From assembly GCA_964630225.1 (NCBI GenBank), contig CAZVUK010000002.1, forward strand, positions 1-59,504: a stretch of 59,504 bases of DNA, written 5' to 3'. The notes under the pieces were generated by a model, which did not search any database, had not been told where the DNA came from, and was given only the letters and a program-made list of their open reading frames with translations. Numbering within the stretch: the first letter of the stretch is position 1; each line of letters begins with the position of its first letter. The translations under genes and the position numbers were made by a program. Shown here in pieces: positions 16,084 through 52,569 of this stretch. Source of the stretch: an uncultured Muribaculaceae bacterium (GTDB lineage Bacteria > Bacillota_I > Bacilli_A > RF39 > UBA660).

Positions 16084-16086
16084 ATT

Positions 16087-17742: not shown

Positions 17743-17749
17743 GTGATTT

Positions 17750-19428: not shown

Positions 19429-19436
19429 GAGGAAAT

Positions 19437-30818: not shown

Positions 30819-32450
30819 ATGTCAAAGATATCGATAATAACATATGATAAAAAGCTTATATTTGATACAGTAAACTTTATCGAAGAAAAAGTTAATTTAA
30901 ATAACACTAATGTTATCGATGTCGAAACTATGTATTTTAGCGATATATATATTGCTAAAAACATGTACACTATGACTAGTTTTTTAAATCTGATTGTTGC
31001 TAAAAAGAATATAAAAGAACTTGTCATAAAGAAAATAAATATAGCTCCACTAGTTCTTAAATTGACAAAAGATATCCCGATACTAAGTAAAGTAACTATC
31101 GAAGAAGATGTAAACATTAACTATGAAACATACGAGGCTTTAACCTTAGCTGAACATCTTAAAGAAGTCGAATGTTTTTCGATGCCTCCGTTTATGTTTG
31201 ATAGTTTAGATCACAAATATAATAAAACCATAAAGCTACGTCAAAAAGAGATGTTCTACAGTCCCTTTATGAAGGTTAATAAATTAGAAAGCTTCGATGA
31301 AATATATTATTGTCGTAAGATAATCATCGCTGAAAAACCAAGTAGCACAGATCTCGAAGACATAGCATCATTTTTTAGAATCAATAATAGAATAAGATTG
31401 ATAGAGTTTCACTATTACGATTACAATCTAGTAACGACTATTATCGCTTATTTGAACAGAAATAATGCTCAAAACGTTTTGATTAAAATTAAACATATTG
31501 AAAATGAGAATGTTATCTCGCTTGTAAATCAGTTAGAAAAAAGCCATGCTCGGTATTTTAAGAACAACAAAGTCAGAATTAAAATTGATTACAAGAATGA
31601 ACACAAAAGCAAATACTTCTTAAAACAGTTTAATCTTAGTTTATTTAGAGCGATACTAATTATTGCAATAGTTATTATTTTACTTTTACTAAGCGTATTT
31701 AATTACAAGGAAAGACAGGATGCCAAAGCTAGCAAAAAAATAGACCAAGTAACTCAAGGAATTGGTGATGAAATGAGTGGTATTCAAGCAGCTATCGATA
31801 GCGAAATGGATGCCCAGGAAGCAATCATGGCCGCTGAAGCTAGTGGTACTGAACTTCCACACGATGCTTCTTATGATATTTATTTTCAAAAACTTGAAAA
31901 AGTTTGGGATAGCTTAATAAGTAAAAACGAAGACACGGTAGGCTGGCTAAAAGTAAATGGCAGTAAAGTTGATTACCCGGTCGTACAGGCCAAAGATAAT
32001 ATCTATTATCTAAACCGCAACTTTTACAAAAAAAGAAATATCTATGGTTGGATATTTATGGATTATCGTAACAAAAAAGCTAAGATGGATCAAAATACTA
32101 TTATATATGGTCATAGAACTAACAACGGCATTATGTTTGGTACACTTAAAAATGTGTTAAAGAAATCGTGGTACACAAATCCTGCTAATCAGGTGATAAG
32201 TTTCAATACGACAGCTGAAACTCATAACTGGAAAATATTTTCTATTTATACAATCGGTGCAACCGATGATTATTTATACAATAATTTTTATAACGATAAT
32301 CAAAGAGTCGATTTTTTCAACAAACTTAGAAATCGCAGTATTCATAACTTTGCAGTCGAAGTCGGAGCTAAAGATAAAATTCTCACTTTGTCTACATGTT
32401 ATGAGGGAGCAGAAAAACGATTAGTCATCCACGCAAAGATGATTGACTGA
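30819..32450 (+). CDS. srtB: Class B sortase fused to a ~270-aa N-terminal cytoplasmic domain of unknown function
   Basis: The C-terminal ~200 aa match SrtB hallmarks: VGWLKVNGSKVDYPVVQAKDN, IFMDYRN, TIIYGHR, ILTLSTC, RLVIHAK. TM at LFRAILIIAIVIILLLLSVF (about aa 273-292). Nothing is recognisable in aa 1-270. Confidence 0.85.
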   Translation: MSKISIITYDKKLIFDTVNFIEEKVNLNNTNVIDVETMYFSDIYIAKNMYTMTSFLNLIVAKKNIKELVIKKINIAPLVLKLTKDIPILSKVTIEEDVNINYETYEALTLAEHLKEVECFSMPPFMFDSLDHKYNKTIKLRQKEMFYSPFMKVNKLESFDEIYYCRKIIIAEKPSSTDLEDIASFFRINNRIRLIEFHYYDYNLVTTIIAYLNRNNAQNVLIKIKHIENENVISLVNQLEKSHARYFKNNKVRIKIDYKNEHKSKYFLKQFNLSLFRAILIIAIVIILLLLSVFNYKERQDAKASKKIDQVTQGIGDEMSGIQAAIDSEMDAQEAIMAAEASGTELPHDASYDIYFQKLEKVWDSLISKNEDTVGWLKVNGSKVDYPVVQAKDNIYYLNRNFYKKRNIYGWIFMDYRNKKAKMDQNTIIYGHRTNNGIMFGTLKNVLKKSWYTNPANQVISFNTTAETHNWKIFSIYTIGATDDYLYNNFYNDNQRVDFFNKLRNRSIHNFAVEVGAKDKILTLSTCYEGAEKRLVIHAKMID

Positions 32451-32454
32451 TAAA

Positions 32455-32482
32455 AAAAGATAGCTTTTAGCTATCTTTTTGT
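32455..32482 (+). terminator. Rho-independent terminator after srtB
   Basis: Stem aagatagc / gctatctt with loop tttta, followed by a T-run. Confidence 0.7.
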
Positions 32483-32527
32483 TGCTCTAATTTAACCAAT
32501 AAGCTAAACTAAAGCCAGGAGGAATTT

Positions 32528-34162
32528 ATGAAAAAAAATCAAAAAAATTGTTCATTTTCAATCAAGTCATTTCTCATTACTGTGGTATTAATGACAGCTT
32601 ATTATTACTTCTTACTACCACCGATGAACTTACATAGTCCAGAGTTTTGGGTGTTTATATCGCTCTTTTTATTCATCTATGGAATATCAGCATCAATATT
32701 TGAAGGAGCGGCCTTGTTTGATGCTAAAAAAACAAAAACTAAAACGCCAGCACCGATGCCGCGCAGTTTTAGAATTGTTTTAGTCATCCCCGCAATCATT
32801 TTGGTGATTATGCTAATCAATTTTATTGCCTCACCAGTATTTAATGCAAAAACTTATTCTAAACGTATTACTATTGACGAAGGAACAGACTTCGCCGAAG
32901 AAGTAGCCGAAGTAGATTTTGCTAAGATACCGCTACTTGATAAGGCGTCAACTAGAAAAGTTGGTGATAGAGTAATGGGGGAGTTACCAGAACTTGTATC
33001 ACAGTTTGATGTATCTAATTTATACACACAGATCAATTATAAAGATACGATTGTCAGAGTTACACCATTAGAATACTCAGATGTCATCAAATACTTTACT
33101 AATCGTAAAGATGGAATCAAAGCATATATAATGGTTGATTCAACTACCGGAAAAAGCAGCCTTGTAAAGCTTGATAAAGGTATGAAATACATGCCTAGTG
33201 CTATATTTGGTGAAGACTTATATCGCAAACTTCGTTTTTCATATCCATTTGATATCTTTGGAGAAATTTCATTCGAAGTAGACGATGAGGGTAATCCATA
33301 CTGGATAATCCCAGTTAAAACCTATACAGCTGTTGGTATGAGAGAAGAAATCAGTAGTTTAATTATCTTTAATCCAGCGGATGGAACAAGTGTTAAACAT
33401 AAAGTTAAAGACGTCCCAACTTGGGTTGATCACGTCTTTACATCGGAACTTGTTTTATCTCAAACTAACGACTGGGGTTCATATCGCGGAGGATATTTTA
33501 ACTCAATTTTCGGTCAAAAGAATGTCGTTAAGACAACCGAAGGATACAATTATGTCGTTATGAATGACGATGTATACTTATACACAGGTATAACATCAGC
33601 TGTTAGAGATGAATCTAATATCGGTTTTATTTTAACTAATCTAAGAACTAAAGAAACACGTTACTATAAGGTTGCTGGTGCTGAAGAGTTCTCGGCTATG
33701 TCTAGTGCCGAAGGGCAAGTGCAACAGATGAAGTATCGCTCTACGTTCCCGCTACTAATTAATTTAAAAGGAAAACCTACCTATTTAATATCATTAAAAG
33801 ATAATGCTGGTCTTGTCAAAATGTATGCTTTCGTCGATGTTCAAAACTATCAAAATGTTACTGTTACTAGTGCTAGTGAAGGAATTGAACAAGCAGCTAC
33901 TAACTACTTAAGTGGTCGCAAAGATACTGTTTCTCCTAGTGAGAACTTAGTTTCTAAAATCACGGTTAAGCAAATAAACTCAGCTTCAAATGACGGAGAA
34001 ACTTCATATTACATTCTAGATAATGAAAATAAAAAGTATAAGGCTCCAATTAAAGCTGGTGAAGCTATTCTTCCATTCTTAAGAAGTGGAGAAGTTATAA
34101 AAATCACTTACTTTGAAGGAGACAAAATAAATACTATTACAAAGGTCGAAGCCAATGATTAG
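32528..34162 (+). CDS. Hypothetical membrane protein with a large extracytoplasmic domain (544 aa)
   Basis: Three N-terminal TM segments followed by about 440 aa of soluble sequence. SD aggagga upstream. No motif recognised. Confidence 0.65.
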   Translation: MKKNQKNCSFSIKSFLITVVLMTAYYYFLLPPMNLHSPEFWVFISLFLFIYGISASIFEGAALFDAKKTKTKTPAPMPRSFRIVLVIPAIILVIMLINFIASPVFNAKTYSKRITIDEGTDFAEEVAEVDFAKIPLLDKASTRKVGDRVMGELPELVSQFDVSNLYTQINYKDTIVRVTPLEYSDVIKYFTNRKDGIKAYIMVDSTTGKSSLVKLDKGMKYMPSAIFGEDLYRKLRFSYPFDIFGEISFEVDDEGNPYWIIPVKTYTAVGMREEISSLIIFNPADGTSVKHKVKDVPTWVDHVFTSELVLSQTNDWGSYRGGYFNSIFGQKNVVKTTEGYNYVVMNDDVYLYTGITSAVRDESNIGFILTNLRTKETRYYKVAGAEEFSAMSSAEGQVQQMKYRSTFPLLINLKGKPTYLISLKDNAGLVKMYAFVDVQNYQNVTVTSASEGIEQAATNYLSGRKDTVSPSENLVSKITVKQINSASNDGETSYYILDNENKKYKAPIKAGEAILPFLRSGEVIKITYFEGDKINTITKVEAND

Positions 34163-34835
34163 AAAATTATTAATCTTAATTCTTGTGGCCTTTATTGTCA
34201 CGGCTTGTGCTAAAGAAACTAAATCGCCTCTTCCCTTTGTCAAAGAGTATGAAGCATTAAATGAATCTAAGACTCAGTCGGGTAAAACATACAGCAGTCT
34301 AAAACTTAAGAATGCTGAACGTATCAAATATGCTAATTATGATGAAATTGATAAAGCCTTAGAGAAAGATGCCATAATCTACTTTGGATTTCCAGAATGT
34401 CCATGGTGTCGAACGCTAGTTCCGGTCTTACTCGAAAGTGCTAAAGAGGCAGGAATCAAAGAGATACTGTATATGAACATTCTAAACGAAAGAAATTCAT
34501 ATGAACTAGATGAAAATGGCAAAGCAGTTTTAAAATCAAATGGTACTAAAGGCTATAACGCCCTAGTCGAAAAATTAGCAAATCATTTAGATGATTATAC
34601 ATTAACTAGTGAAGATGGCCAAAAGATTGAAACAGGAACTAAACGAATATTTGCTCCAACTTTAATCTTTGTATCTAAAGGGAAAGTAATCTATGTTCAT
34701 AAAGGAACAGTTGATTCACAAGAAGATCCGTATCTAGAATTAACTAAAGAACAAAAAGAAGAACTTATGAAAGTACTTATCGATAATATGAATAAAGTAC
34801 TAGACATCACTTGTGAAGAAGAGACAAAGTGCTAA
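34155..34835 (+). CDS. Thioredoxin-fold lipoprotein (CxxC)
   Basis: 8-nt overlap with the upstream gene. Lipobox FIVTAC. Redox motif FGFPECPWCRTLVP. Confidence 0.75.
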   Translation: MIRKLLILILVAFIVTACAKETKSPLPFVKEYEALNESKTQSGKTYSSLKLKNAERIKYANYDEIDKALEKDAIIYFGFPECPWCRTLVPVLLESAKEAGIKEILYMNILNERNSYELDENGKAVLKSNGTKGYNALVEKLANHLDDYTLTSEDGQKIETGTKRIFAPTLIFVSKGKVIYVHKGTVDSQEDPYLELTKEQKEELMKVLIDNMNKVLDITCEEETKC

Positions 34836-34898
34836 AGCGTTTTGTCTTTTTTCTTTGTTATTTTACAAAAAAGATATACAATTATATTAGGTGATAAT

Positions 34899-35945
34899 AT
34901 GAATGAAGGAAATAATAAATACGATAAGTTTAAAACCCCTGATTATATTAGATATGGAGGGGATGACCCTCTAGCTCAAACTAAAGAGTTAGAAAAATTT
35001 AGAAGACAACAGGATTTATATATAAGAAGTAAGAAAACAAGGGGGAAGTTTTTTAAATCTTTATTAAGTATATTAATAATTATCTTAATTATCTATATTG
35101 GTTTTTGGACCTATAAAGAATTCTTTAAGGCAATTGATCCCAATCTTCAAGTAGATAAGTCCTCTCCTCATTATGTTAATGATTTATATGCATCTGATGG
35201 TAGATTCTATGAAAAACTTCTAGATGAAAATCAAAAGAAAGCTTATATGGAGTGGCTTAATGTTATTAAAAAGGTAGAAAAAGAATTTGTTGTTAGTTAT
35301 GATTACTTTAAAGGTCAAGAAATAGATACAATGAAAGTAAATGTCGAGATGATATATAAAGTTATGTCGATGGATCATCCAGAATTATTTTATTTATCTG
35401 ATTATACTTTTTCAGGTTATGACGTATATGAAATGAAGATAACAAATAATTATATTGTTGATAGTAAAGTAATAATTGATTTTTATGAAAAAAGATTACT
35501 TAGAAAATTAGATGATTTGTATTATAAATGGAAAGATATAAAAACAGATTATGCTAAAGAAGTGGCAGTTTATAATTGGATCTCTAAAAATAAAATACCA
35601 GCTGGTGAGACGAGGATTACTAGTACGGCAACTTCGGCCCTATTAGATGGTAGAACTAATCATATAGGTGCTGCTAAAGCTAGTCAGATTTTGATGAGGA
35701 GATTAGATGTGCGCAGTGATTTAGTCTTTGGTTATTATGAATTTCCTCGTGTCTTTAATCTCGTTTATCTAGATGACGGAGTATACTATTACGATTCTGG
35801 TAGAGGAGTAGAAACAGTCGATAAAAAAGTAATTGGCCGAAAAAATGCTGGTCTAAATATCAGTGATAATGAAAAATATGGTGTATACATGATTAAACCA
35901 GATGAAAGAATGCTGGGTCAAAAGTATTTAAATGAAATAAATTAA
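34899..35945 (+). CDS. Hypothetical bitopic membrane protein (possible degenerate transglutaminase-like domain)
   Basis: ATG 34899 follows taggtga (the tracked ORF starts at 34842). TM LLSILIIILIIYIGFWTY. The segment DGRTNHIGAAKASQILMRRLDVRSDLVFGY resembles a transglutaminase core with His in place of the catalytic Cys. Confidence 0.55.
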   Translation: MNEGNNKYDKFKTPDYIRYGGDDPLAQTKELEKFRRQQDLYIRSKKTRGKFFKSLLSILIIILIIYIGFWTYKEFFKAIDPNLQVDKSSPHYVNDLYASDGRFYEKLLDENQKKAYMEWLNVIKKVEKEFVVSYDYFKGQEIDTMKVNVEMIYKVMSMDHPELFYLSDYTFSGYDVYEMKITNNYIVDSKVIIDFYEKRLLRKLDDLYYKWKDIKTDYAKEVAVYNWISKNKIPAGETRITSTATSALLDGRTNHIGAAKASQILMRRLDVRSDLVFGYYEFPRVFNLVYLDDGVYYYDSGRGVETVDKKVIGRKNAGLNISDNEKYGVYMIKPDERMLGQKYLNEIN

Positions 35946-41119: not shown

Positions 41120-41185
41120 CTTTATTTCCTTTAAAAATATACTTACTTATGATAATATATTTAGTATAAGGGTAGGAGGCATTAT

Positions 41186-44100
41186 ATGTTTAATAGGAAG
41201 CTCGAAAATGATAAAGGTTTTACCCTAGTAGAAATCATATCGACAGTAATTATACTATCGATAATATTATTAATTGCAGTACCTGCAATTGGAAATTTAC
41301 TAAATGGATTTAGGACAGATTATTATAAGAAATTACAAAAGACTGTTAAAACCAGTGGTCAAGATTATATAAATGATAATCGCCGACTTAGACCTTCAGG
41401 AGTTTTTGAATCCTATGTTATTACAACTAAAGTTTTAGAGACCGATAAAAAAATAGATAAAGTAGTAGACTATCGTAAGAAAGCTTGTTCTAATACAAGC
41501 TATGCGATAGTTATTAAAACGGCAGATAAAAAATATCAATATGAAAGTTGTCTTTCTTGCCCGGAAGATAGTTATACAACGACTCTTAAAGATCGTCCAT
41601 ACTGTCACCCAGCGTGGAAGAACAATGATAATATATCTATAGAATTGTCTACCCCGCCAAAAGATATTTATATTCCTATAAATGCAAATATGGCATACAT
41701 AAGAGAAAAATTAGGAATAAAGAAACAGATTGTTAAAAAAGACAGTAGTGGCAAGATTATTGCTGCTCTTACGGTTGATGATGAAGATGTTATCCTGCCA
41801 GAAAATATCAATGGTTTTGTTGGTACAACAGCTGTTTCAGGACAAGCTATTTATAATTATGGAGGAAAGACGATTCAAACGAATGTTCATATCTTCCAAA
41901 ATGAAGCACCTAAAGTTACGATGACTAACATAAGAAATGGAACTCCTTATACAGCAGGAACCTGGACTTCAGGAGTTAGAGTAATACTGGCAGCCAACGA
42001 TGAATATTTTAATATCTTAAACTTAAAGATTTCAGAATATCAAGTATATGATGTTGCGAAAGGCACTTGGACAAAAATTACTTCTTGTCCAGCGGAATCT
42101 ACTTCTTGTACGATCAACTATAATACGACGATGGTTAGAAATTACCGATATAGGATTATCGTAGCGGGAGGATCGACAAGTAAAATAACGGCAGCTTATA
42201 GCTTCAAAATAGATGCTTCAGTGCCAAATTGTAATATAAACATGATTGATGGAAGTGGCGGTGCATATACAGGTGCTTACATCAACACTAATCAAGTGAC
42301 CATTAGATACTCGGCAGATGATCCGCAGTATGAAGGACTTCCGTTAAGTAGTATGTCTAAAGCAGAACTTTATATCACTAGCTCAAATCCAAATGAACCT
42401 GTTGTTACACAGACACTTACTGCAAACGTTGCACCTTGGCGAACAATTCATACGATAACCGATGAGGGAAGCTACAGCATCATGCTGAAATGCTACGATA
42501 CTGTTGGTAACTATAATACAGCCAGCGCAAACATAAATATTTTACGCGATATATCAGTTAAGTTTTATTCGCCAACTTCGACAACCTTATATGCAACGAC
42601 AACTTATCAATATAATAAAGCCCTTGGAACTCTTCCTACGCCAGCGCGTACTGGACATACTTTCCAAGGATGGTTTACAACGCCAACAACTGGTGGAACG
42701 AAGGCGGTTGCTACGACAGTGCTTACAACAACATCTAATACTTACAGTCTATTTGCTAGATGGACCGCAAATATATATACATTAACATATAATTCAAATG
42801 GTGGAACAACCGTTACTAACCCAACTAGTTATACCTATGGTGTTGGGGTATCATCGTTTACCAACCCAACGAGGACGGGATATCGTTTTGCTGGCTGGCA
42901 TGATGGAACATCGGTTAAAGCTAGTATCACGGCAACCGATCTTGGGAACAAAACTTTAACAGCGCAGTGGACAGCTAACACCTATACCATTGTTTATAAT
43001 GGTGCTGGAAATACGTCAGGTACGATGGCTAATACGAAATGTACTTACAACGCAACTTGTACTCTTCGAGCTAATGCTTTTGTTAGAACGGGAAATAATT
43101 TCATGGGATGGTCTTTAACTAATGGAGGAGTGGTTGCTCACAACAACAGTGCCACCGTTAGTAACTTAAGTTCGACTCATAATGCAACGATCAATCTTTA
43201 TGCTATCTGGAGTCGCAGTAGTTATACAATTACATATAACTTAAACGGCGGAACTAATCCATCTACCAATCCAGGATCATATACATATGGAGATACTATT
43301 ACCTTTGCCAGTCCAACAAGAACAGGATATCGTTTTGATGGATGGTATAAAGAAGCAGCTTTTACAAATAGAGTTACGGGCATTACAGCAACAGGTACCG
43401 GAGCGGTAGTTGTCTATGCTAAATGGCTTGCCAACACTTATTTCATCGATTATGCAGCTAATGGTGCAACTAGTGGTACGATGGCTAGAACAACCTGTAC
43501 TTATGGAACTGGTTGTACCCTTCGAACTAACACTTTTGCTAGAACTGATTATCGTTTTAACAACTGGAGTTCGGGTGGTAAGACTTATGCTGATTTAGCT
43601 AACGTCACAAATCTTACAGCAACCCATAATGGAGTAATAACTATGACTGCTAACTGGGTTCAACGTGTAAATTATATATATCTTCTTCATGGATTTAGTG
43701 GAGGAACCTCCAATCTCTATGGCTTTGGAACCCAATCTATAAATATGAATGCCAATGCACCATATTATTTGGATACAGCGGGTTATGTCGATGCCACAGC
43801 TCAAGCCAATGGGTATAGCTTAGCTACTTATGTATATCCTGCAGCAGGGTGGACTTGGAGTACAAGAACGCTAATTTCTGGTCTGGCGCCAAATAAATAT
43901 AATGGTGTATACTTCACTGCTCCAGAGACACAAGAATATAGAGTAACATCATATATGTTTCCAAATGGAGGAACACGTCTTGGGACTGTAACTTGGTCGG
44001 GAAGCACTCTTTACCAAGATCAAACCTTCCAACAAGGAAGCATTTGGAAGACGGTCGATACCGGAACTAATATTACAGTCCCGGCTGTCGCGGCGGCTAG

Positions 44101-45127
44101 GACGGGTTATAGCTTCACTGGCTGGCTCGGGGAGAATGGAACAATTTACAATGCTAGCAATGTTGTAGGAATGACCGCAGCTTTAGCGGGAACAGACTTA
44201 AACTTTGTCTTTAGAGCACAATGGCTGGGTAATCCTTACACCGTTAGTTTTAATGCTAACGGCGGAACCGGAACAATGGCAGCTCTTAACTGCCGTATTG
44301 GTCAAACCTGTACTCTTCCTGCCGAAGCTTACACTAACAACTGTTATAAATTTGATGGTTGGGCAACAAGTGCCGCTGGTGCTGTTGTTTATAGTGATAG
44401 AGCGACCGTCGCTCTTACCGCAAATGTAACCCTTTATGCGAAATGGAGTGCCAACTATGTTAACAACACAACTACTTGTGCTGCTTGTAGCGTATCCTGT
44501 GGCGGCGGAACACAAACTTGTACCGTCACGAAAAAAGATACGGCAACCGGTGTTGCCTGCCCAGCAAGTTTAAATACCAGTTACTCTCAAGCTTGTAATA
44601 CACAATCGTGCTGTTCGTCAGTAACGACAAGTTATGGTGCATGGGGTGCTTGTAGTGCATCTTGTGGTGGCGGAACGCAAACAAGATCAGTAACGACAAA
44701 AAGTACATATAATGGAGCAACCTGCAGTACTTCGACGCAAAGTCAGGCATGTAACACCCAAACTTGTCTTGTCGAACCTAACGCAACAATATATGCCCAA
44801 CAGTTAACGACATGTGTAAACGGTGTTTACTTTTACACAACACAGGCGCAAAACCCATCGAGATGGATAACAACAGAAATGACAGTACACTGGGTTATAA
44901 GTGGTGCCGTGGTTGCAACCTATTACGGTGATTTAGCAGGAACGAATCCGGGAGGTTTTGGTCCATGGTATGCTTATAATTTTGGAGCACCACCACCTGC
45001 TCCAGCAACGACTAGTGGCTACTATGTAACTAGACATACGGAACTATACTTTAGGTTAAAAGGTAAAATAGCAACGACTGGAGCGGCAATTATTAACCAG
45101 TCAGGATATGGAGGATGTTCAGTATAA
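41186..45127 (+). CDS. Giant (1,313 aa) type IV pilin-like modular surface protein A: prepilin leader, pilin-like head, about 7 Listeria-Bacteroides-type repeats, 2 TSP1-like repeats, C-terminal domain
   Basis: Strong SD gggtaggagg. N-terminus MFNRKLENDKG|FTLVEIISTVIILSIILLIAVP is a class III signal with Glu+5. Seven T(G)Y.F.GW motifs. TSP1-like motifs CSVSCGGGTQTC and WGACSASCGGGTQTR. Confidence 0.85.
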   Translation: MFNRKLENDKGFTLVEIISTVIILSIILLIAVPAIGNLLNGFRTDYYKKLQKTVKTSGQDYINDNRRLRPSGVFESYVITTKVLETDKKIDKVVDYRKKACSNTSYAIVIKTADKKYQYESCLSCPEDSYTTTLKDRPYCHPAWKNNDNISIELSTPPKDIYIPINANMAYIREKLGIKKQIVKKDSSGKIIAALTVDDEDVILPENINGFVGTTAVSGQAIYNYGGKTIQTNVHIFQNEAPKVTMTNIRNGTPYTAGTWTSGVRVILAANDEYFNILNLKISEYQVYDVAKGTWTKITSCPAESTSCTINYNTTMVRNYRYRIIVAGGSTSKITAAYSFKIDASVPNCNINMIDGSGGAYTGAYINTNQVTIRYSADDPQYEGLPLSSMSKAELYITSSNPNEPVVTQTLTANVAPWRTIHTITDEGSYSIMLKCYDTVGNYNTASANINILRDISVKFYSPTSTTLYATTTYQYNKALGTLPTPARTGHTFQGWFTTPTTGGTKAVATTVLTTTSNTYSLFARWTANIYTLTYNSNGGTTVTNPTSYTYGVGVSSFTNPTRTGYRFAGWHDGTSVKASITATDLGNKTLTAQWTANTYTIVYNGAGNTSGTMANTKCTYNATCTLRANAFVRTGNNFMGWSLTNGGVVAHNNSATVSNLSSTHNATINLYAIWSRSSYTITYNLNGGTNPSTNPGSYTYGDTITFASPTRTGYRFDGWYKEAAFTNRVTGITATGTGAVVVYAKWLANTYFIDYAANGATSGTMARTTCTYGTGCTLRTNTFARTDYRFNNWSSGGKTYADLANVTNLTATHNGVITMTANWVQRVNYIYLLHGFSGGTSNLYGFGTQSINMNANAPYYLDTAGYVDATAQANGYSLATYVYPAAGWTWSTRTLISGLAPNKYNGVYFTAPETQEYRVTSYMFPNGGTRLGTVTWSGSTLYQDQTFQQGSIWKTVDTGTNITVPAVAAARTGYSFTGWLGENGTIYNASNVVGMTAALAGTDLNFVFRAQWLGNPYTVSFNANGGTGTMAALNCRIGQTCTLPAEAYTNNCYKFDGWATSAAGAVVYSDRATVALTANVTLYAKWSANYVNNTTTCAACSVSCGGGTQTCTVTKKDTATGVACPASLNTSYSQACNTQSCCSSVTTSYGAWGACSASCGGGTQTRSVTTKSTYNGATCSTSTQSQACNTQTCLVEPNATIYAQQLTTCVNGVYFYTTQAQNPSRWITTEMTVHWVISGAVVATYYGDLAGTNPGGFGPWYAYNFGAPPPAPATTSGYYVTRHTELYFRLKGKIATTGAAIINQSGYGGCSV

Positions 45128-45138
45128 TGAAAAACAAA
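43649..45138 (+). repeat. Copy 1 of a 1,490-bp perfect direct repeat (3' third of giant gene A plus the first 12 nt of the downstream gene)
   Basis: Line-by-line comparison at a constant 6,300-nt offset. Mismatches occur up to 43648/49948, identity runs from gctaactgggtt... through ...agtataatgaaaaacaaa, and the copies diverge at 45139/51439. Confidence 0.9.
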
Positions 45139-45891
45139 AAAATACCAATAATTTTTATAATTATTCTAGGTTTAATCTTAATAGGAGTAGGAGTCTTCTT
45201 TCTAAAAGATTCCAAAATTACTAAACCTAATACAAAAACAGAAAGTCAGAAGGTCGAAGCAGCTTTAAAACTATTGATCGATGATCTATTAACTAAAGAT
45301 GCTTCACCCGAAGCTTTCAATACTAAATACAATGTCGATTATTTCAGCGACGCATATTTACCGTTTGCTGAGAAAACAATTGTTACTTATAAAGCAAAAA
45401 TTTCCTCACCAGATACTGAACAACAGGCATGTCTAGCTTTTGTTGATGTCAACTACAATGATTTAATCAAAGCCTACAAAAAGGCCTTAGATTACAAAGT
45501 ATCGATTGATGAAACAAAGAAAGAAGCATCCTTAACGATCAAAGTCTATCAACTTCGTCATTATCACAATGTTTTAACCAAAGTTAGCGATTTAATAATG
45601 GCAGATATTGAAGATAAGTCGGCTCTTGGTGAAGAAGTGTTTTTCGCTAATAGGTGTCTAGCTTTAAAAGCAATGAATAAAAACACGGATGAGTTTAACA
45701 AAGGTGAGAACTTAAACGTCAAAGTAAATTATAAATTTGATGGTGATAAATTTATCCTTGAAGATTATAGTTTATTAGGAAACGCTCTTTCAGGAATGAC
45801 TTATATTATGCAACTTGGAGGAAACGATGAGATTGAAGCAGTTATGAAACCGTTGGCAGAAAAGATTTACAAAGATGTTCAAAAAAATTGA
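45127..45891 (+). CDS. Bitopic membrane protein, accessory family 1 (copy a)
   Basis: TAATG overlap with giant gene A. MKNKKIPIIFIIILGLILIGVGVFF TM, then a soluble domain of about 225 aa. Paralog of 45875-46651 (shared ...DYK(V/I)(S/D)ID..., ...RC(L/Q)A(L/I)KAM(N/D)K...). Confidence 0.7.
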   Translation: MKNKKIPIIFIIILGLILIGVGVFFLKDSKITKPNTKTESQKVEAALKLLIDDLLTKDASPEAFNTKYNVDYFSDAYLPFAEKTIVTYKAKISSPDTEQQACLAFVDVNYNDLIKAYKKALDYKVSIDETKKEASLTIKVYQLRHYHNVLTKVSDLIMADIEDKSALGEEVFFANRCLALKAMNKNTDEFNKGENLNVKVNYKFDGDKFILEDYSLLGNALSGMTYIMQLGGNDEIEAVMKPLAEKIYKDVQKN

Positions 45892-46651
45892 TAAACAAAA
45901 AGTATTAATTATTCTTATTGCTATTATATTAGTCATAGGGATATTAGAATTCAGTAAAAGCTTTAAGTCTAAAACAACTAATTCATACGACAAAAACTTA
46001 ATTAAAGATGAAGTTATCAATCTAATAAAAGATATGACTGCTAAAGATGTAGTAATCGAAGACTTTAAATTAAAGTATAATTATTATGAATTCTCAAATG
46101 AATTTAATAGCGATAGTTTTCCTTTTAGTAACAAAAACATCTTAGCTTATATACCAGAATCAGCTATCGCTAATTCGAAAACTAGAGAGTGCATCGAAAT
46201 AGCCCACAACAGTTATCAAAAGATATATGATATGTATATTGATAATCTTGATTACAAAATCGATATCGATAGTGATAATAATTTAATAGATATCAAACTA
46301 AAAAATTTTTATCTGATTAGATATCACTATATTTTGACTCTTGTTACTGATATGTACAAGGGAGAAAGCAACGTCAAATTAAATGAAAATGAATTCTTTG
46401 GATATCGCTGTCAAGCAATAAAAGCTATGGACAAAGAACTTGATAACTTTAAAAATAAAGCTACTTACGTCAGAGTAAAATTAAAGTTTGAACTCGATGA
46501 TGAAAGAATTAAAATAGCTAATACTGATACATTAGGTTATTATCTTACAGCTAGAAACTACATAGATACTTCTAATGACACATCGATGGCTAAAGGAACT
46601 GAAAAAATCAAAGAAGAAGCTAAACGCTACTTTGAAAAAGCTCAAAAATAA
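45875..46651 (+). CDS. Bitopic membrane protein, accessory family 1 (copy b)
   Basis: Overlaps the previous gene by 17 nt. MFKKIDKQKVLIILIAIILVIGILEF TM. Same length (258 aa) and colinear similarity to copy a. Confidence 0.7.
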   Translation: MFKKIDKQKVLIILIAIILVIGILEFSKSFKSKTTNSYDKNLIKDEVINLIKDMTAKDVVIEDFKLKYNYYEFSNEFNSDSFPFSNKNILAYIPESAIANSKTRECIEIAHNSYQKIYDMYIDNLDYKIDIDSDNNLIDIKLKNFYLIRYHYILTLVTDMYKGESNVKLNENEFFGYRCQAIKAMDKELDNFKNKATYVRVKLKFELDDERIKIANTDTLGYYLTARNYIDTSNDTSMAKGTEKIKEEAKRYFEKAQK

Positions 46652-46696
46652 ACTTTAATTTGATTTGTATATGTTATAATATTCATAGGAGGATAT

Positions 46697-47407
46697 ATGA
46701 AAAATAAAAAGATTCAAGTATTGATTTATATTTTATTGATCGTAGTTGCAATAATTATTTTAGTTTTTGCTTTACCTAAGCTGTTCAGTAATAAGAAAGC
46801 TGACAAAGCAGGCGAAAAACCAGCAGAACAAAAATATAAAATAGTAAAACAATCTAAATCAGATAAAATAATTTATGATTATAAGAAATTTAAAACAGAG
46901 TTTATCAAAGTTGGTTTTGAAGAGACGAGTTGTAATGATGATGTAATAAGCGGTTTAGATCCACTTATATGTCATGCAAAGCGTAATGTTTTTGCCGAAA
47001 AAGAAATAGATGACATCCTATCATTAACCTTTAATGGGGAAGTGGTAGAAACTATGAGTGTCAATTTAAAATACGATGGCGATGACTTTAAAACTAAAAC
47101 ATTAGTCAAAGATGCTAATAACATCGTAAATAACTTAATTGATTATAAAGTTGATGATGCTATCATCAAAGATTTACTTGAAAAAATAACTAAGACCCCT
47201 ACTGAGCTTGGTGTATCAACCCATAAAGACAGTAAAGATTATAGAGTATTTTATAATATGAAATTTGTCGAAGGAAATGAAATAAATCCAAGATACTTCG
47301 ACCTAAGTATAATCTTTTATCAAAAGTCGACGATAATTGACTTAGAAACACCTGTTACTGAAGCAGAAAAAGAAACGGAATCAAGTAAATCAATTATGGA
47401 GAGATAG
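46697..47407 (+). CDS. Bitopic membrane protein, accessory family 2 (copy a)
   Basis: SD taggagga. TM VLIYILLIVVAIIILVFAL. Paralog of 51427-52029 (YDYKKFKTEFIKVGFEETSCNDDVISGL vs YPYNKFKTELIKIGFVQAKCNDDKVSGM). Confidence 0.7.
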   Translation: MKNKKIQVLIYILLIVVAIIILVFALPKLFSNKKADKAGEKPAEQKYKIVKQSKSDKIIYDYKKFKTEFIKVGFEETSCNDDVISGLDPLICHAKRNVFAEKEIDDILSLTFNGEVVETMSVNLKYDGDDFKTKTLVKDANNIVNNLIDYKVDDAIIKDLLEKITKTPTELGVSTHKDSKDYRVFYNMKFVEGNEINPRYFDLSIIFYQKSTIIDLETPVTEAEKETESSKSIMER

Positions 47408-47431
47408 AAAAAGTGCTATTGCACTTTTTTT
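47408..47431 (+). terminator. Rho-independent terminator between the two giant-gene units
   Basis: Stem aaagtgc / gcacttt with loop tatt, followed by a T-run. Confidence 0.7.
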
Positions 47432-47441
47432 GTTGATTTCA

Positions 47442-47470
47442 ATTTACTTTTCAAATACTTATGATATAAT
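47442..47470 (+). promoter_or_regulatory. Candidate promoter of giant gene B (extended -10 TGaTATAAT)
   Basis: tgatataat at 47462-47470, with tttact about 16 nt upstream. A similar acttatgataat box precedes giant gene A (about 41143-41156). Confidence 0.4.
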
Positions 47471-47497
47471 TTATTTAATAATATAATAGGTAAGAGT

Positions 47498-50400
47498 ATG
47501 AAAAAGATTAATAATAATGTCAAGGGCTTCACACTTATAGAAATAATATCGACAGTTATCATTTTGTCGATAATTTTATTGATAGCAATACCAACTTTTA
47601 GTAGAATTTTGGCAGGATTTAGAAAAGATTACTACAGTAAATTACAAGATACTGTTCAAAAAGTAGGTAAAGACTATATAAATGATAATAGGCGTCTTAG
47701 ACCAGTTGGAGTATTTCAGACAAGGATTATTAAAGTACCTGTTTTAGTTCAGGCTAAAAAGATGGATGCTCTAATTGATTACAAAAAGAAACCTTGTTCA
47801 ACGGATAGTTATATAGTTGCAGTTAAAACAGCTGATAAAAAATTTGAATATACGAGCTGTTTAACTTGTTCGGAAGATCAGTATCAAACCGATGTAAATG
47901 ATTATAAATATTGTCATCCTGCGTGGCTTACTAACGATAATATATTTGTTGAAATGTCGCCACCTCCGGCAGATATATACATACCACTTAATGCAAGTAT
48001 CGATTACATAAAAAGTAAATTAGGTATTACTAAAAGTATCGTTAAAAAAGATAGTACAGGTAAAATAATAGCTTCATTACCGGTTGATGATAAAGATATT
48101 ATCTATCCTAATAATATAAATTCATTTATTGGGACAACTGCTCAAGATGGAGTAGCTTTCTATCAGTATGGAAGTCAAACCATTCAAACCAATGTTCATA
48201 TTTATCAAAACTCAGCACCTAAGTTAAGTTTTGTTAATGTTAAGAATGGAACTGATTATGTACCGGGTACTTGGTCTTCGGCAGTTAGACTTACGATCGA
48301 AGCAAATGACCAGTATTTTGGAATATTAAATCTAACTATTAAAGAATATCAATATATGGACGAAAGTGGCGTATGGAAAAAGATTGATAATTGTACGGCC
48401 GGTTTAAAGTCTTGTACTTTCACATATAATGAAACAATGAATTCATCGATGAAGTTTAGAATTATCAATAACGGAGATGCAGCTAGTAAAGAGACGTCTT
48501 TCTATAGTGTCAGAGTTGATGCTTCGACTCCAAACTGTTATATGAGCATGCTCGATGCAAGTGGTGCTGCCTACAGTGGTAATTACATCAACACTTCATC
48601 AATAAGAGTTAATTATAAAGCCGATGATCCGCAGTATGCAGGTTTACCTGCTAGTAGCATTCAAAATGTTGAACTATATATAAATGGAGTACTTACTGAT
48701 ACACATAATCTAAATGGAACAAACGTCTATACATGGACGACAATTAAAACCATTACTAATGAAGGATCCTACAGCGCGATGCTAAAGTGTTACGATACCG
48801 TAGGAAACTTTAGTACGGCAAATGGAACAATTAATATTTTAAGAGATATCGATGTTCAGTTCTATTCACCATCTTCAACGACGCTATTCCAAACACTTTC
48901 ATATCAATATAACAAAGCCATGGCAAGTCTTCCAACTCCAAGTAGAACGGGATATACTTTTAATGGCTGGTTTGATACTCCGGCATCAGCGGGAACGCAG
49001 TATCTTGCTACAACCGTTTTGGATACGACAATAGAACCACTTAAGTTGTTCTCGAGATGGACAGCTAATATCTACAATATATCTTATGTATATAATGGAG
49101 GAACAACTGTCTCTAACCCAAGTAGCTATGTTTTTGCTACCGGTGTTGCTGGTTTTGCAAGCCCAAGTAGAACCGGATACATATTCGGTGGATGGTATAA
49201 AGAAGCATCACTAGTTACGAGAGTTACTAGCATATCGACAACTGATTATGGAAACTATACACTCTATGCCAAGTGGACCCCAATTACTTATACGATGACT
49301 TATAATGCTAATGGTGGTGCAGGTACGATGGCAAGTACCGTCTGTACTTATGATACAGTTTGTACTTTGAGAACTAATACTTTCACCAAAACGGGAACGA
49401 GCTTTATCGGCTGGGCAAACAGCACTACAGGAGCGGTTGTCTATGCCAATGGTGATACCATTAACAACTTGACGACAACTAACGGAGCAAGTTTTACCCT
49501 CTATGCAAAATGGCAAAATAATACTTACGGAATAACATACAGTTTAGGCGGAGGAACTCATAGTGGAAATCCGACCTTCTATACATATGGAACAGGAACA
49601 GCTAGTTTTGCCAATGCGAGCAGAACCGGATATATATTCGGTGGATGGTATAGCGACTCAGCACTAACTGTTAGAGTGACAAGTATTTCTACGACCGCAA
49701 CAGGCGATATTACCCTCTATGCAAAATGGACCGCTATTACTTACACTATAGCTTATGCTGCAAATGGTGGAAGTGGCGCAATGTCCAATACAACTTGTAC
49801 TTATGGTGTAGGCTGTGTGCTAAGATCTAACGCCTTTACGCAAACTGGATATCGTTTTACCCTATGGTCATACGGCGGAAGTAATTACAATGACGGAGCA
49901 ACCGTAACTAATTTAACAACAACTAATGGAGCTGTTTTAACATTTACAGCTAACTGGGTTCAACGTGTAAATTATATATATCTTCTTCATGGATTTAGTG
50001 GAGGAACCTCCAATCTCTATGGCTTTGGAACCCAATCTATAAATATGAATGCCAATGCACCATATTATTTGGATACAGCGGGTTATGTCGATGCCACAGC
50101 TCAAGCCAATGGGTATAGCTTAGCTACTTATGTATATCCTGCAGCAGGGTGGACTTGGAGTACAAGAACGCTAATTTCTGGTCTGGCGCCAAATAAATAT
50201 AATGGTGTATACTTCACTGCTCCAGAGACACAAGAATATAGAGTAACATCATATATGTTTCCAAATGGAGGAACACGTCTTGGGACTGTAACTTGGTCGG
50301 GAAGCACTCTTTACCAAGATCAAACCTTCCAACAAGGAAGCATTTGGAAGACGGTCGATACCGGAACTAATATTACAGTCCCGGCTGTCGCGGCGGCTAG

Positions 50401-51427
50401 GACGGGTTATAGCTTCACTGGCTGGCTCGGGGAGAATGGAACAATTTACAATGCTAGCAATGTTGTAGGAATGACCGCAGCTTTAGCGGGAACAGACTTA
50501 AACTTTGTCTTTAGAGCACAATGGCTGGGTAATCCTTACACCGTTAGTTTTAATGCTAACGGCGGAACCGGAACAATGGCAGCTCTTAACTGCCGTATTG
50601 GTCAAACCTGTACTCTTCCTGCCGAAGCTTACACTAACAACTGTTATAAATTTGATGGTTGGGCAACAAGTGCCGCTGGTGCTGTTGTTTATAGTGATAG
50701 AGCGACCGTCGCTCTTACCGCAAATGTAACCCTTTATGCGAAATGGAGTGCCAACTATGTTAACAACACAACTACTTGTGCTGCTTGTAGCGTATCCTGT
50801 GGCGGCGGAACACAAACTTGTACCGTCACGAAAAAAGATACGGCAACCGGTGTTGCCTGCCCAGCAAGTTTAAATACCAGTTACTCTCAAGCTTGTAATA
50901 CACAATCGTGCTGTTCGTCAGTAACGACAAGTTATGGTGCATGGGGTGCTTGTAGTGCATCTTGTGGTGGCGGAACGCAAACAAGATCAGTAACGACAAA
51001 AAGTACATATAATGGAGCAACCTGCAGTACTTCGACGCAAAGTCAGGCATGTAACACCCAAACTTGTCTTGTCGAACCTAACGCAACAATATATGCCCAA
51101 CAGTTAACGACATGTGTAAACGGTGTTTACTTTTACACAACACAGGCGCAAAACCCATCGAGATGGATAACAACAGAAATGACAGTACACTGGGTTATAA
51201 GTGGTGCCGTGGTTGCAACCTATTACGGTGATTTAGCAGGAACGAATCCGGGAGGTTTTGGTCCATGGTATGCTTATAATTTTGGAGCACCACCACCTGC
51301 TCCAGCAACGACTAGTGGCTACTATGTAACTAGACATACGGAACTATACTTTAGGTTAAAAGGTAAAATAGCAACGACTGGAGCGGCAATTATTAACCAG
51401 TCAGGATATGGAGGATGTTCAGTATAA
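47498..51427 (+). CDS. Giant (1,309 aa) type IV pilin-like modular surface protein B (paralog of A)
   Basis: N-terminus MKKINNNVKG|FTLIEIISTVIILSIILLIAIP. Same domain order as A. The first ~820 aa are diverged from A (roughly half to two-thirds identical by eye). The last ~490 aa are identical. Confidence 0.85.
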   Translation: MKKINNNVKGFTLIEIISTVIILSIILLIAIPTFSRILAGFRKDYYSKLQDTVQKVGKDYINDNRRLRPVGVFQTRIIKVPVLVQAKKMDALIDYKKKPCSTDSYIVAVKTADKKFEYTSCLTCSEDQYQTDVNDYKYCHPAWLTNDNIFVEMSPPPADIYIPLNASIDYIKSKLGITKSIVKKDSTGKIIASLPVDDKDIIYPNNINSFIGTTAQDGVAFYQYGSQTIQTNVHIYQNSAPKLSFVNVKNGTDYVPGTWSSAVRLTIEANDQYFGILNLTIKEYQYMDESGVWKKIDNCTAGLKSCTFTYNETMNSSMKFRIINNGDAASKETSFYSVRVDASTPNCYMSMLDASGAAYSGNYINTSSIRVNYKADDPQYAGLPASSIQNVELYINGVLTDTHNLNGTNVYTWTTIKTITNEGSYSAMLKCYDTVGNFSTANGTINILRDIDVQFYSPSSTTLFQTLSYQYNKAMASLPTPSRTGYTFNGWFDTPASAGTQYLATTVLDTTIEPLKLFSRWTANIYNISYVYNGGTTVSNPSSYVFATGVAGFASPSRTGYIFGGWYKEASLVTRVTSISTTDYGNYTLYAKWTPITYTMTYNANGGAGTMASTVCTYDTVCTLRTNTFTKTGTSFIGWANSTTGAVVYANGDTINNLTTTNGASFTLYAKWQNNTYGITYSLGGGTHSGNPTFYTYGTGTASFANASRTGYIFGGWYSDSALTVRVTSISTTATGDITLYAKWTAITYTIAYAANGGSGAMSNTTCTYGVGCVLRSNAFTQTGYRFTLWSYGGSNYNDGATVTNLTTTNGAVLTFTANWVQRVNYIYLLHGFSGGTSNLYGFGTQSINMNANAPYYLDTAGYVDATAQANGYSLATYVYPAAGWTWSTRTLISGLAPNKYNGVYFTAPETQEYRVTSYMFPNGGTRLGTVTWSGSTLYQDQTFQQGSIWKTVDTGTNITVPAVAAARTGYSFTGWLGENGTIYNASNVVGMTAALAGTDLNFVFRAQWLGNPYTVSFNANGGTGTMAALNCRIGQTCTLPAEAYTNNCYKFDGWATSAAGAVVYSDRATVALTANVTLYAKWSANYVNNTTTCAACSVSCGGGTQTCTVTKKDTATGVACPASLNTSYSQACNTQSCCSSVTTSYGAWGACSASCGGGTQTRSVTTKSTYNGATCSTSTQSQACNTQTCLVEPNATIYAQQLTTCVNGVYFYTTQAQNPSRWITTEMTVHWVISGAVVATYYGDLAGTNPGGFGPWYAYNFGAPPPAPATTSGYYVTRHTELYFRLKGKIATTGAAIINQSGYGGCSV

Positions 51428-51438
51428 TGAAAAACAAA
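49949..51438 (+). repeat. Copy 2 of the 1,490-bp perfect direct repeat
   Basis: See copy 1. The identical antisense ORFs in the track (44198-44515 = 50498-50815; 44526-44750 = 50826-51050) corroborate it. Confidence 0.9.
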
Positions 51439-52029
51439 TATTATTTATTAATAAGCATAATAGTTATCGCGTTAATTACTGGAATCGTAATACTCTTAAT
51501 TAGGATTCCAATCAATAAAGAGGGAACATATAAAACGCTTAAACAAAGTCAGGAAACTAAAACGATAATTTATCCCTATAATAAGTTTAAAACAGAACTG
51601 ATCAAGATCGGTTTTGTGCAAGCTAAATGTAATGACGACAAAGTAAGTGGTATGGAAAACATTGTCTGTGCCGCTACCAAAGATAACAATGTACTTCAAA
51701 ATGTCGATTCGCTTAACTTCACTTATAATGGCGATGTTATAGAAACTTTAATTCTAAAACTAAATTATGAATCATTTGATTCTAAAACAGTAAAAAGAGA
51801 CATAAAAGCAATTATTAATAATTTCATCGTCTTAAATTTAGAAGAAAAAACAGTCGCTCAGCTAAAAGAAAAATTAGATCGTAAGAACACTGTTCATGGT
51901 TCAACAACATCCTTAGTTGTCGGAGATTATTACACTCATTATAATCTCAAAGAACATGAAAGTGAAAATGATAATTATTATAGCGTTTCAGTAACAATGT
52001 ATTTAAAAGCAACTCCAACTGTAGAATAA
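51427..52029 (+). CDS. Bitopic membrane protein, accessory family 2 (copy b)
   Basis: TAATG overlap with giant gene B. TM YYLLISIIVIALITGIVILLI. Paralog of 46697-47407. Confidence 0.7.
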   Translation: MKNKYYLLISIIVIALITGIVILLIRIPINKEGTYKTLKQSQETKTIIYPYNKFKTELIKIGFVQAKCNDDKVSGMENIVCAATKDNNVLQNVDSLNFTYNGDVIETLILKLNYESFDSKTVKRDIKAIINNFIVLNLEEKTVAQLKEKLDRKNTVHGSTTSLVVGDYYTHYNLKEHESENDNYYSVSVTMYLKATPTVE

Positions 52030-52049
52030 AAGGCAAGTAATTGCCTTTT
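52029..52049 (+). terminator. Rho-independent terminator ending the giant-gene locus
   Basis: 8-bp stem aaaggcaa / ttgccttt with loop gtaa, followed by a short T-run. Confidence 0.65.
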
Positions 52050-52063
52050 CTCTTTGTCAAACA

Positions 52064-52092
52064 TTGACTTTTTCCTTCATTTATAGTATAAT
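52064..52092 (+). promoter_or_regulatory. Near-consensus sigma-A promoter
   Basis: TTGACT (52064-52069), a 17-nt spacer, then TATAAT (52087-52092). Followed by ggagg and ATG 52114. Confidence 0.6.
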
Positions 52093-52113
52093 ACGCCTTG
52101 ATTTGGAGGCCCT

Positions 52114-52569
52114 ATGTTAAGAAATATTAAAATATATTCCCAAATAGTCTTAAAATCTAACTTCAATCTTCGTATCTATAAAATTTCGCTAGTTCATTTA
52201 GGTGATAAAAAATATACTAAAGGAAGATTAATTCCGCTTAGAACGATCAGTAAAAACGCTAGACCAGTATTAGTTAAAAAGTTATCATTTGAAAACAAAG
52301 AATTGGATAAATTCAAGAGAATAGATAAATATAATGACTGCTTTGTCTTTGTTAAAAACGAAAAAAAGGGGCAAAGTACCTTAGGTATTGATATTGTTAA
52401 AAAAAGCAATCATAGTCTTGATCTAAGTGATTCTTTAATTAAAAGAAATGCAAGACAAGAGTTGATCCATATGAATTTTGATGATAGGAAATCGATCACC
52501 AGTAAAAATATAATGCTTGTAAGTAGCAAGTTCAAATATGAGTTTATGAATAATTATACTAGTTTTTAA
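52114..52569 (+). CDS. Hypothetical basic protein (151 aa)
   Basis: Has its own strong promoter and SD. K/R-rich, no TM, no recognisable motif. Confidence 0.5.
   Translation: MLRNIKIYSQIVLKSNFNLRIYKISLVHLGDKKYTKGRLIPLRTISKNARPVLVKKLSFENKELDKFKRIDKYNDCFVFVKNEKKGQSTLGIDIVKKSNHSLDLSDSLIKRNARQELIHMNFDDRKSITSKNIMLVSSKFKYEFMNNYTSF

Follow-up and report, generated by a model that had tools for sequence, protein, structure and literature searches.

Modular pilins, which join an N-terminal pilin motif to non-pilus domains, are thought to explain the functional variety of simple type IV filaments, and only those of about 50 kDa have been studied. In 2021, InterPro held more than 1,200 such proteins in 264 architectures, the largest of 860 amino acids (aa) (PMC8179133). 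The closest described systems include PilB and PilC of Streptococcus sanguinis, in which a von Willebrand-type (vWA) and a lectin domain, respectively, are joined to a small pilin module with a class III signal and Glu+5 (PMC8179133, PMC9934059). Others are CofB of enterotoxigenic Escherichia coli (ETEC) and TcpB of Vibrio cholerae, both situated at the filament tip, and the large sugar-binding proteins of the Sulfolobus bindosome, which have a prepilin-like signal and genes away from the assembly genes (PMC3047682). Here, we describe a locus on contig CAZVUK010000002.1 of an uncultured bacterium, analysed over a 59.5-kb stretch (hereafter the window), that encodes two prepilin-type proteins of about 1,300 aa, A and B, together with four small membrane-anchored proteins of two families, fam1 and fam2. 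The locus was first noticed in a reading of the DNA letters alone (the sequence-only reading). We consider it probable, with moderate confidence, that A and B serve as surface adhesins and are type IV (minor) pilins of a giant, modular kind.

Prepilin N-termini and grafted adhesin-type modules

Both giants begin with a class III signal, which the sequence-only reading had recognized by its Glu at +5. Pfam N_methyl scores 22.1 bits in A and 23.5 bits in B against a gathering score of 21.2, and TIGR02532 scores 22.4 and 20.2, respectively, against a cut-off of 16.3. The leaders (MFNRKLENDKG in A, MKKINNNVKG in B) are short and charged, end in Gly(-1), and are followed by Phe. In a search of PDB sequences, the N-terminal helix matched geopilin (E 8e-9), MshA (2e-7), and S. 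sanguinis PilE1 (4e-6); these pilin matches are restricted to the first helix, alpha1. Behind it lies the expected Cys-containing head (C...CxxC...C), with C101, C122, C125, and C140 located in A (nt 41486-41605). Judging from their spacing (C-x20-C-x2-C-x14-C), the four cysteines could make a metal (zinc) site instead of two disulfides, in an anaerobe. An AlphaFold model of aa 1-155, built from a 40-sequence alignment, has a predicted local distance difference test (pLDDT) score of 91.5 and consists of a 51-residue helix (14-64) and strands at 76-80, 106-113, and 116-122. The longer model of aa 1-480 (20-sequence alignment, mean pLDDT 83) has the same helix 14-64 and small beta head, followed by a string of beta-sandwich domains.

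Most of the roughly 300 aa behind the head are modelled as tandem immunoglobulin (Ig)-like beta-sandwich domains, for which the top Foldseek matches are adhesin stalks: SiiE (E 4e-8), an Antarctic ice-binding adhesin, and GhpA. This stalk, aa 146-460 of A, is kept in family members. Beyond it, Flg_new is detected in seven stretches per giant (E 6e-60 in A, 1e-63 in B). A repeat model of our own places the units of A at aa 461-523, 531-592, 600-672, 680-744, 752-821, 951-1005, and 1018-1084, so that the repeats are split 5 + 2 by an insert of 129 aa. Two TSP1-like (thrombospondin type 1) repeats follow, each with the motif CS(V/A)SCGGGTQT in A. TSP_1 exceeds its gathering score of 21.6 in both giants (34.8 in A, where the second repeat passes it, and 34.6 in B), and in PDB sequences these Cys-rich repeats match thrombospondin-1 (E 2e-7). 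The insert (aa 822-950 of A) has no family match, and the C-terminal domain of 119 aa matches nothing in Pfam, NCBIfam, or PHROGs, nor in the other family members sampled.

With N_methyl, seven Flg_new repeats, and TSP_1, A and B unite an N-terminal pilin motif with non-pilus domains, the combination by which modular pilins are recognized. The check proposed on first reading, a search of both proteins for N_methyl, Flg_new, and TSP_1, found all three in each giant, N_methyl and TSP_1 above their gathering scores, and the counts of about seven Flg_new and two TSP1-like repeats given at the time were confirmed. The domain order given at the time needs amending in two respects: the 300 aa left unassigned are mostly Ig-like, and the Flg_new series is interrupted by the 129-aa insert.

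A very large family in uncultured gut Bacilli

A full HMMER search with aa 1-480 of A against 1.84 billion representatives yielded 2,062 clusters at E<=1e-3, of which 412 pass E<=1e-10 and 73 pass E<=1e-30. A and B are ordinary members of this very large and so far unstudied family from uncultured gut Bacilli. In a scan of genome collections, relatives were found mostly in metagenome-assembled genomes (MAGs) labelled uncultured Bacilli, Tenericutes, Mollicutes, Mycoplasmatota, or Erysipelotrichia, which derive from the guts of rabbits, ruminants, and humans (Hadza); a search of JGI metagenomes for close relatives of A found none.

The part that the members share is N-terminal and about 350 aa long: alpha1, a head whose four cysteines are invariant or almost so, and beta-rich domains. 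C-terminal modules, by contrast, vary between members. Flg_new is present in 24 of 53 large members scanned, which makes N_methyl + Flg_new the commonest architecture, and further modules among the 53 are TSP1, Ephrin_rec_like, DUF285/LRR, Ig-like, and pretoxin HINT (PT-HINT) domains. Combinations of N_methyl with LRR_5, DUF285, Laminin_G_3, and Bact_surface_Ig-like also occur in a database of 5.8 billion clusters; where such proteins bear a name, it reads [quoted passage not shown]. Size varies as well: among the best 149 of the 2,062 representatives, 34 have at least 1,000 aa and the longest has 1,614 aa, and pilin-sized members of 131-148 aa bear the same four-Cys head. The sequence-only reading knew of no described system with this composition, a statement that does not survive the finding of at least 2,062 related clusters, the prevalence of N_methyl + Flg_new among them, and the published record of modular pilins (PMC8179133).

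The hallmarks of the pilin N-terminus are kept throughout the same 149 representatives: Gly-1 in 139 (the other 10 have Ala), Phe+1 in 140, Glu+5 in 148, Gly+14 in 121, and Pro+22 in 110. In type IV pilins, these residues are needed for the peptidase to recognize its substrate and for alpha1 to pack and partly melt in filaments; the importance of Glu+5 and of the Gly14/Pro22 pair lies in filament assembly, not in membrane insertion. The conservation of the hallmarks across so large a family points to a functional class III signal and away from a chance signal anchor, an explanation that we reject on this ground. Retention of the hallmarks in more than 100 clusters at about 30% identity likewise argues that the proteins are true substrates of the type IV filament pathway.

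Three other prepilin-led proteins or loci illustrate the range of modules. The family member P0029 (1230 aa) ends in a pretoxin HINT or intein-like domain after EGF-like or Ephrin_rec_like Cys-rich repeats, a C-terminus that may point to release by autoproteolysis or to a variant of the family that delivers toxins. In a Bacilli MAG from the Hadza gut, a 1005-aa prepilin-led protein (L036, 797-3814) carries a run of TSP1-like repeats, with TSP1_spondin and TSP_1 above their cut-offs; thrombospondin-type repeats are recurrent on prepilin proteins in this bacterial group. L054 (2752-12880) encodes five tandem prepilin-led paralogs of about 690 aa, so that one locus carries a whole array of prepilin-anchored surface proteins. 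The one scanned has BspA-type LRR_5 repeats, and the L054 proteins match the family query in alpha1N only.

A shared 3' block and coupled small genes

Over their final 1,479 nt and a further 11 nt beyond the stop, the DNA of A and B shows 100% identity, and the last 492 aa of the two proteins are consequently the same, whereas the first 820 aa or so (5' 2.4 kb) share about 57% protein identity. The identical stretch sets in precisely at a domain border, aa 822. L081, an independent short-read contig, spans window positions 45109-49984 at 99.9% identity and ends about 30 nt inside the repeat on either side. Since a true two-copy repeat predicts that short-read contigs break at its borders, as they do here at those of the 1.49-kb block, the repeat is real. 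The comparison suggests recent gene conversion between paralogous adhesin genes as the simplest explanation of the identical block. No short-read contig with the gene order of the locus exceeds 4.9 kb; that order recurs in at least nine runs from three SRA series and the open reading frames (ORFs) are intact, which rules out an assembly artefact or a pseudogene.

Downstream of the giants lie the small genes, which form two paralog families as first proposed: fam1a shares 32% identity with fam1b (E 1e-24) and fam2a 36% with fam2b (E 4e-36), and fam1 is not related to fam2. A TAATG stop/start overlap, with GGAGG 12 nt upstream, follows both A and B, which bears out the translational coupling proposed earlier. 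Neither family matches anything in Pfam, NCBIfam, PHROG, or PDB sequences. Searches for homologs beyond this species were equally negative for fam1 among 5.8 billion protein clusters, for fam2 in the JGI metagenomes, and for both by phmmer against all ORFs of 78 loci; the 90% cluster of fam2 contains only sequences of the same species.

To look beyond the window, we identified loci of the head family with a hidden Markov model (HMM) of the globular head alone (aa 36-150). At six of nine assessable head-family genes (L002, L003, L078, L079, and A and B of the window), the next gene encodes an N-terminally anchored protein and overlaps the first or lies within 19 nt of it, against a background of 25% of ORFs that encode N-anchored proteins. 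These downstream proteins are mutually unrelated in sequence; the one in L003 is a WG_beta_rep protein. The recurrent feature would be position and membrane topology rather than a protein family, and with so small a count it is only suggestive. Of the accessory claim in the sequence-only reading, two coupled, N-anchored paralog families remain. Their casting as dedicated assembly or chaperone factors is not supported, since they were found in this species only and match no pilus-assembly family, and the proposed check on their co-occurrence with giants elsewhere found no synteny, only unrelated genes in the same position, an outcome that the sequence-only reading had itself named as refuting. 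From these comparisons, fam1 and fam2 are probably not assembly machinery.

Filament subunits or membrane-anchored adhesins

If A and B are giant pilins, a prepilin peptidase of the PilD/ComC type, encoded outside the window, would cut after Gly11 of A and Gly10 of B. The hydrophobic alpha1N, with its Glu+5 and Pro+22, would first hold the protein in the membrane and would then admit it to a type IV filament, either a Com-type pseudopilus or a pilus. The most likely position would be the tip, since the filament body has no room for an appendage of 1,300 aa, and the extracellular part of about 1,150 aa would form a long adhesin that reaches out from the cell. A and B would diversify by recombination, with the 3' 1.49 kb homogenised by gene conversion and the 5' 2.4 kb diverged, and fam1 and fam2 would be fast-evolving, species-specific partners rather than conserved assembly factors.

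Several observations weigh against this proposal. The 59.5-kb window, within which all machinery and motif negatives for the locus hold, contains no PilB/ComGA, PilC/ComGB, or PilD/ComC: Pfam scans of its 46 larger ORFs found no T2SSE, T2SSF, or Peptidase_A24, HMMs made from machinery genes of other loci matched nothing, and a six-frame motif scan located prepilin N-termini only in A and B. The remark in the sequence-only reading that no pilus machinery lies nearby is upheld by these scans. The same three families are absent within 10 kb at about 14 independent loci found with the head HMM (L001-L009, L013, L059, L078-L080), all situated among housekeeping genes, so that separation from the machinery is a trait of the family and not a peculiarity of the window. 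A Foldseek search with the head model gave no significant match to a solved pilin or other PDB entry (best E 1.1). The earlier suggestion to look for a lollipop fold in aa 1-150 is therefore answered in part, by the modelled long helix and small beta head, and a pilin fold of the globular head is plausible from its topology yet unproven. We know of no experiment demonstrating membrane extraction and polymerisation of so large a subunit. Nor does any published modular pilin come near this size, the largest in the 2021 InterPro survey having 860 aa (PMC8179133).

Among the head-family loci, L001 has a syntenic ortholog fragment from another metagenome, 64% identical and placed after the same RmuC and rubrerythrin genes, and L006 has two tandem head-family genes. 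In favour of the pilin proposal, type IV machinery was encountered at two other loci, in MAGs labelled Bacilli or Erysipelotrichia, where the neighbouring prepilins are not clear head-family members. At L015, a T2SSE ATPase adjoins small pilins. At L043 (7283-15499), in a MAG labelled Bacillales, a 625-aa T2SSF protein (PilC) and a Peptidase_A24 protein (PilD) lie directly upstream of a 533-aa prepilin protein; the locus also encodes a 1267-aa N-anchored protein with no Pfam match. We rejected L043 as a machinery-linked member of the family because its prepilin gene shares alpha1N and not the head domain, and what it shows is only the presence of type IV filament genes in another Bacillales-labelled MAG. 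In Erysipelotrichales, comG is reported to be vertically inherited (PMC12786226).

The alternative with the greatest claim to attention, though in our judgement a rather unlikely one, is that the giants are cut by prepilin peptidase and never polymerised, the class III signal serving export and anchoring while alpha1N tethers an adhesin stalk that reaches through the wall. Head-family genes scattered among housekeeping genes and separated from the machinery would fit such proteins, as would paralogs at one locus (L006, L054), which suit a surface-protein repertoire better than filament parts; a subunit of 1,300 aa is in any case hard to fit into a filament, and the Sulfolobus bindosome, whose sugar-binding proteins have class III signals yet are not pilins, provides a precedent (PMC3047682). 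Against this stand the pilin-sized members of the same head family and the near-invariant Glu+5 with Gly+14 and Pro+22, residues linked with the assembly of filaments and not with cleavage or anchoring. The sequence-only reading had spoken of giant adhesins that are pilus- or pseudopilus-displayed or else processed by prepilin peptidase; prepilin-leader proteins with grafted adhesin-type modules are what the analysis upholds, compatible with display at the filament tip and with anchoring by alpha1N alike. A broader idea, which we regard as unlikely and offer tentatively, is that the class III signal is a general display route for a large, recombining repertoire of giant adhesins, uncoupled from pilus operons and often with a coupled, fast-evolving partner, in a clade of uncultured and probably reduced-genome gut Bacilli. 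The scale of such a repertoire is seen in the thousands of clusters, in protein lengths that reach 1,600 aa, and in loci that have more than one gene. If true, the idea would give bacteria a parallel to the archaeal bindosome, which might serve to attach the cell to its host or to partner cells.

The coupled small genes invite two further explanations. One would make fam1 and fam2 lineage-specific equivalents of PilN/PilO or GspL/GspM, a private assembly platform for the giants to which they are translationally coupled, and their topology is indeed the same (one transmembrane helix between a short N-terminus in the cytoplasm and a domain of about 200 aa outside). Core assembly factors, however, are normally conserved alongside their substrate family, whereas neither fam1 nor fam2 matches anything in Pfam, NCBIfam, or PDB sequences or has a homolog found outside this species, and the genes in the same position elsewhere are unrelated (WG_beta_rep in L003, for example); because both families are species-specific orphans, we consider a private assembly platform very unlikely. 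The other would treat the giants as polymorphic toxins or contact-dependent effectors with a variable C-terminal effector and the coupled membrane proteins as immunity factors. Variable C-terminal modules, the pretoxin HINT of P0029, and the mutually unrelated coupled genes at six of nine assessable loci are all what such a system would present, but no toxin domain was detected in A or B (Pfam, NCBIfam, PHROGs), and operon 1 has three small genes from two families. Above all, the identical last 492 aa of A and B precede unrelated genes, fam1a and fam2b, which makes a toxin/immunity pairing highly improbable.

Features of the locus and its surroundings

The ORF call reproduced the six gene coordinates first reported, and ORFs, paralogy, and hairpins agree with the layout proposed then (A, fam1, fam1, fam2, terminator, B, fam2, terminator). 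The coordinates are collected in Table 1. Upstream of operon 1, ACTTATGATAAT (a TG-extended -10) lies at 41145 and AGGAGG at about 41174; the extended -10 motif ACTTATGATA precedes both operons, with the copy upstream of B at 47457.

Table 1. Features of the two operons, in window coordinates (aa numbers refer to the protein named)
Feature	Position	Strand	Basis
Promoter-like region and ribosome-binding site, operon 1	41121..41185	+	read from sequence
Giant A, modular prepilin-type protein, 1313 aa	41186..45127	+	ORF call, Pfam/NCBIfam, family search
A, class III leader MFNRKLENDKG, predicted cut after Gly11	41186..41218	+	N_methyl, TIGR02532, Gly-1 conservation
A, pilin module, aa 12-145 (alpha1 aa 14-64 and beta head)	41219..41620	+	AlphaFold, PDB matches on alpha1, conservation
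A, Ig-like beta-sandwich stalk, aa 146-460	41621..42565	+	AlphaFold, Foldseek, family conservation
A, Flg_new (Listeria-Bacteroides) repeats 1-5, aa 461-821	42566..43648	+	Pfam, repeat model
Identical 1,490-nt block, copy 1, from aa 822 of A through start of downstream gene	43649..45138	+	DNA comparison
A, insert domain, 129 aa, aa 822-950	43649..44035	+	no family match
A, Flg_new repeats 6-7, aa 951-1084	44036..44437	+	Pfam, repeat model
A, two TSP1-like repeats, aa 1094-1143 and 1147-1194	44465..44767	+	TSP_1, PDB, shared motif
A, C-terminal domain, 119 aa, aa 1195-1313	44768..45124	+	no family match
fam1a, N-terminally anchored; likely start the ATG of TAATG at 45127, giving 254 aa	45115..45891	+	
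fam1b, 258 aa, fam1a paralog; 17-nt overlap with fam1a	45875..46651	+	
fam2a, 236 aa, N-terminally anchored; own AGGAGG ribosome-binding site	46697..47407	+	
Terminator-like hairpin, end of operon 1	47403..47434	+	
Operon 2 promoter-like site (TTTACT, 16 nt, TATAAT, TG extension) and ribosome-binding site	47443..47497	+	
Giant B, 1309 aa, architecture as in A	47498..51427	+	
B, leader	aa 1-10		
B, pilin module	aa 11-144		
B, Ig-like stalk	aa 145-455		
B, Flg_new repeats	aa 456-817, 947-1080		
B, insert	aa 818-946		
B, TSP1-like repeats	aa 1090-1190		
B, C-terminal domain	aa 1191-1309		
Identical 1,490-nt block, copy 2	49949..51438	+	
fam2b, fam2a paralog; likely start TAATG at 51427, giving 200 aa	51415..52029	+	
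Terminator-like hairpin, end of operon 2	52028..52049	+	

The guanine-plus-cytosine (G+C) content is 38-40% within the giants (42001-46000, 48001-52000) versus 28-34% across most of the window, a rise that may come from Thr/Gly/Ala-rich repeats or from foreign origin. An origin in a phage or plasmid is rejected: tblastn against phage and plasmid collections gave no match, and the PHROG match is weak and limited to alpha1. Rfam found only two tRNAs in the window, both at its far end, and no regulatory RNA at the locus. Directly 3' of the locus, a 151-aa ORF without a family match (52064-52569) is preceded by the best promoter-like site of the region (TTGACT, 17 nt, TATAAT).

Elsewhere, the window encodes HtpG, MurD, GluRS, RNase R, NrdD/NrdG, ABC transporters, RmuC, rubrerythrin, and a sortase-domain protein. 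The last of these, a 543-aa protein in which the sortase domain is only C-terminal (aa 377-541), is followed by three ORFs (544, 226, and 367 aa) without a Pfam match, and the segment as a whole (30819-35945) may be a second locus for anchoring surface proteins. At 13034-20426, two ABC transporter gene sets (ABC_tran + FtsX/MacB and ABC_tran + ABC2_membrane) precede a pair of Peptidase_C39_2 paralogs of 352 and 329 aa, the second with a sub-threshold T4SS_pilin-like N-terminus.

Comparison with known systems

The giants and their family present the modular-pilin design at 140-180 kDa, as a conserved "carrier" of pilin module and Ig-like stalk with swappable adhesin modules, encoded away from pilus genes. 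If loaded onto filaments, the giants move the upper limit on the size of pilin subunits; if only anchored, they show that bacteria put the prepilin pathway to a second use. In both cases they are likely to be major determinants of the cell surface and of colonisation in abundant uncultured gut Bacilli, and their current annotation is generic.

Relative to S. sanguinis PilB and PilC, with which they share the class III signal, Glu+5, a small pilin module, grafted adhesive domains, and a place in monoderm Bacillota, A and B are much enlarged. PilB of S. sanguinis has a mass of about 50 kDa, a single extra module, and a gene inside the pil locus, whereas the giants are about 140 kDa, have at least 13 extra domains, and are encoded apart from the machinery. 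Their Ig-like stalk of about 300 aa, placed before the variable part, and their separate head family are further differences. CofB and TcpB likewise combine a pilin module with beta-rich extra domains and have an operon-encoded partner; they are, however, type IVb proteins of diderms, about 500 aa long and encoded within the pilus operon, and their partners CofJ and TcpF are soluble and secreted, in contrast to the N-anchored neighbours of the giants. Tip placement, established for CofB and TcpB, is only proposed here.

Similarly, the bindosome proteins of Sulfolobus resemble A and B in size, signal, and gene location, but they are archaeal substrate-binding proteins rather than adhesin repeat proteins and depend on a dedicated Bas system (PMC3047682). 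Finally, Flg_new (InlB B-repeat) and BspA-type proteins of gut Bacillota share the repeat type and the likely role as an extended stalk or adhesin; they normally have a Sec signal with an LPXTG, lipobox, or GW anchor and no prepilin N-terminus. Overall, the giants extend the modular-pilin idea and its size range, rather than constituting a new kind of system.

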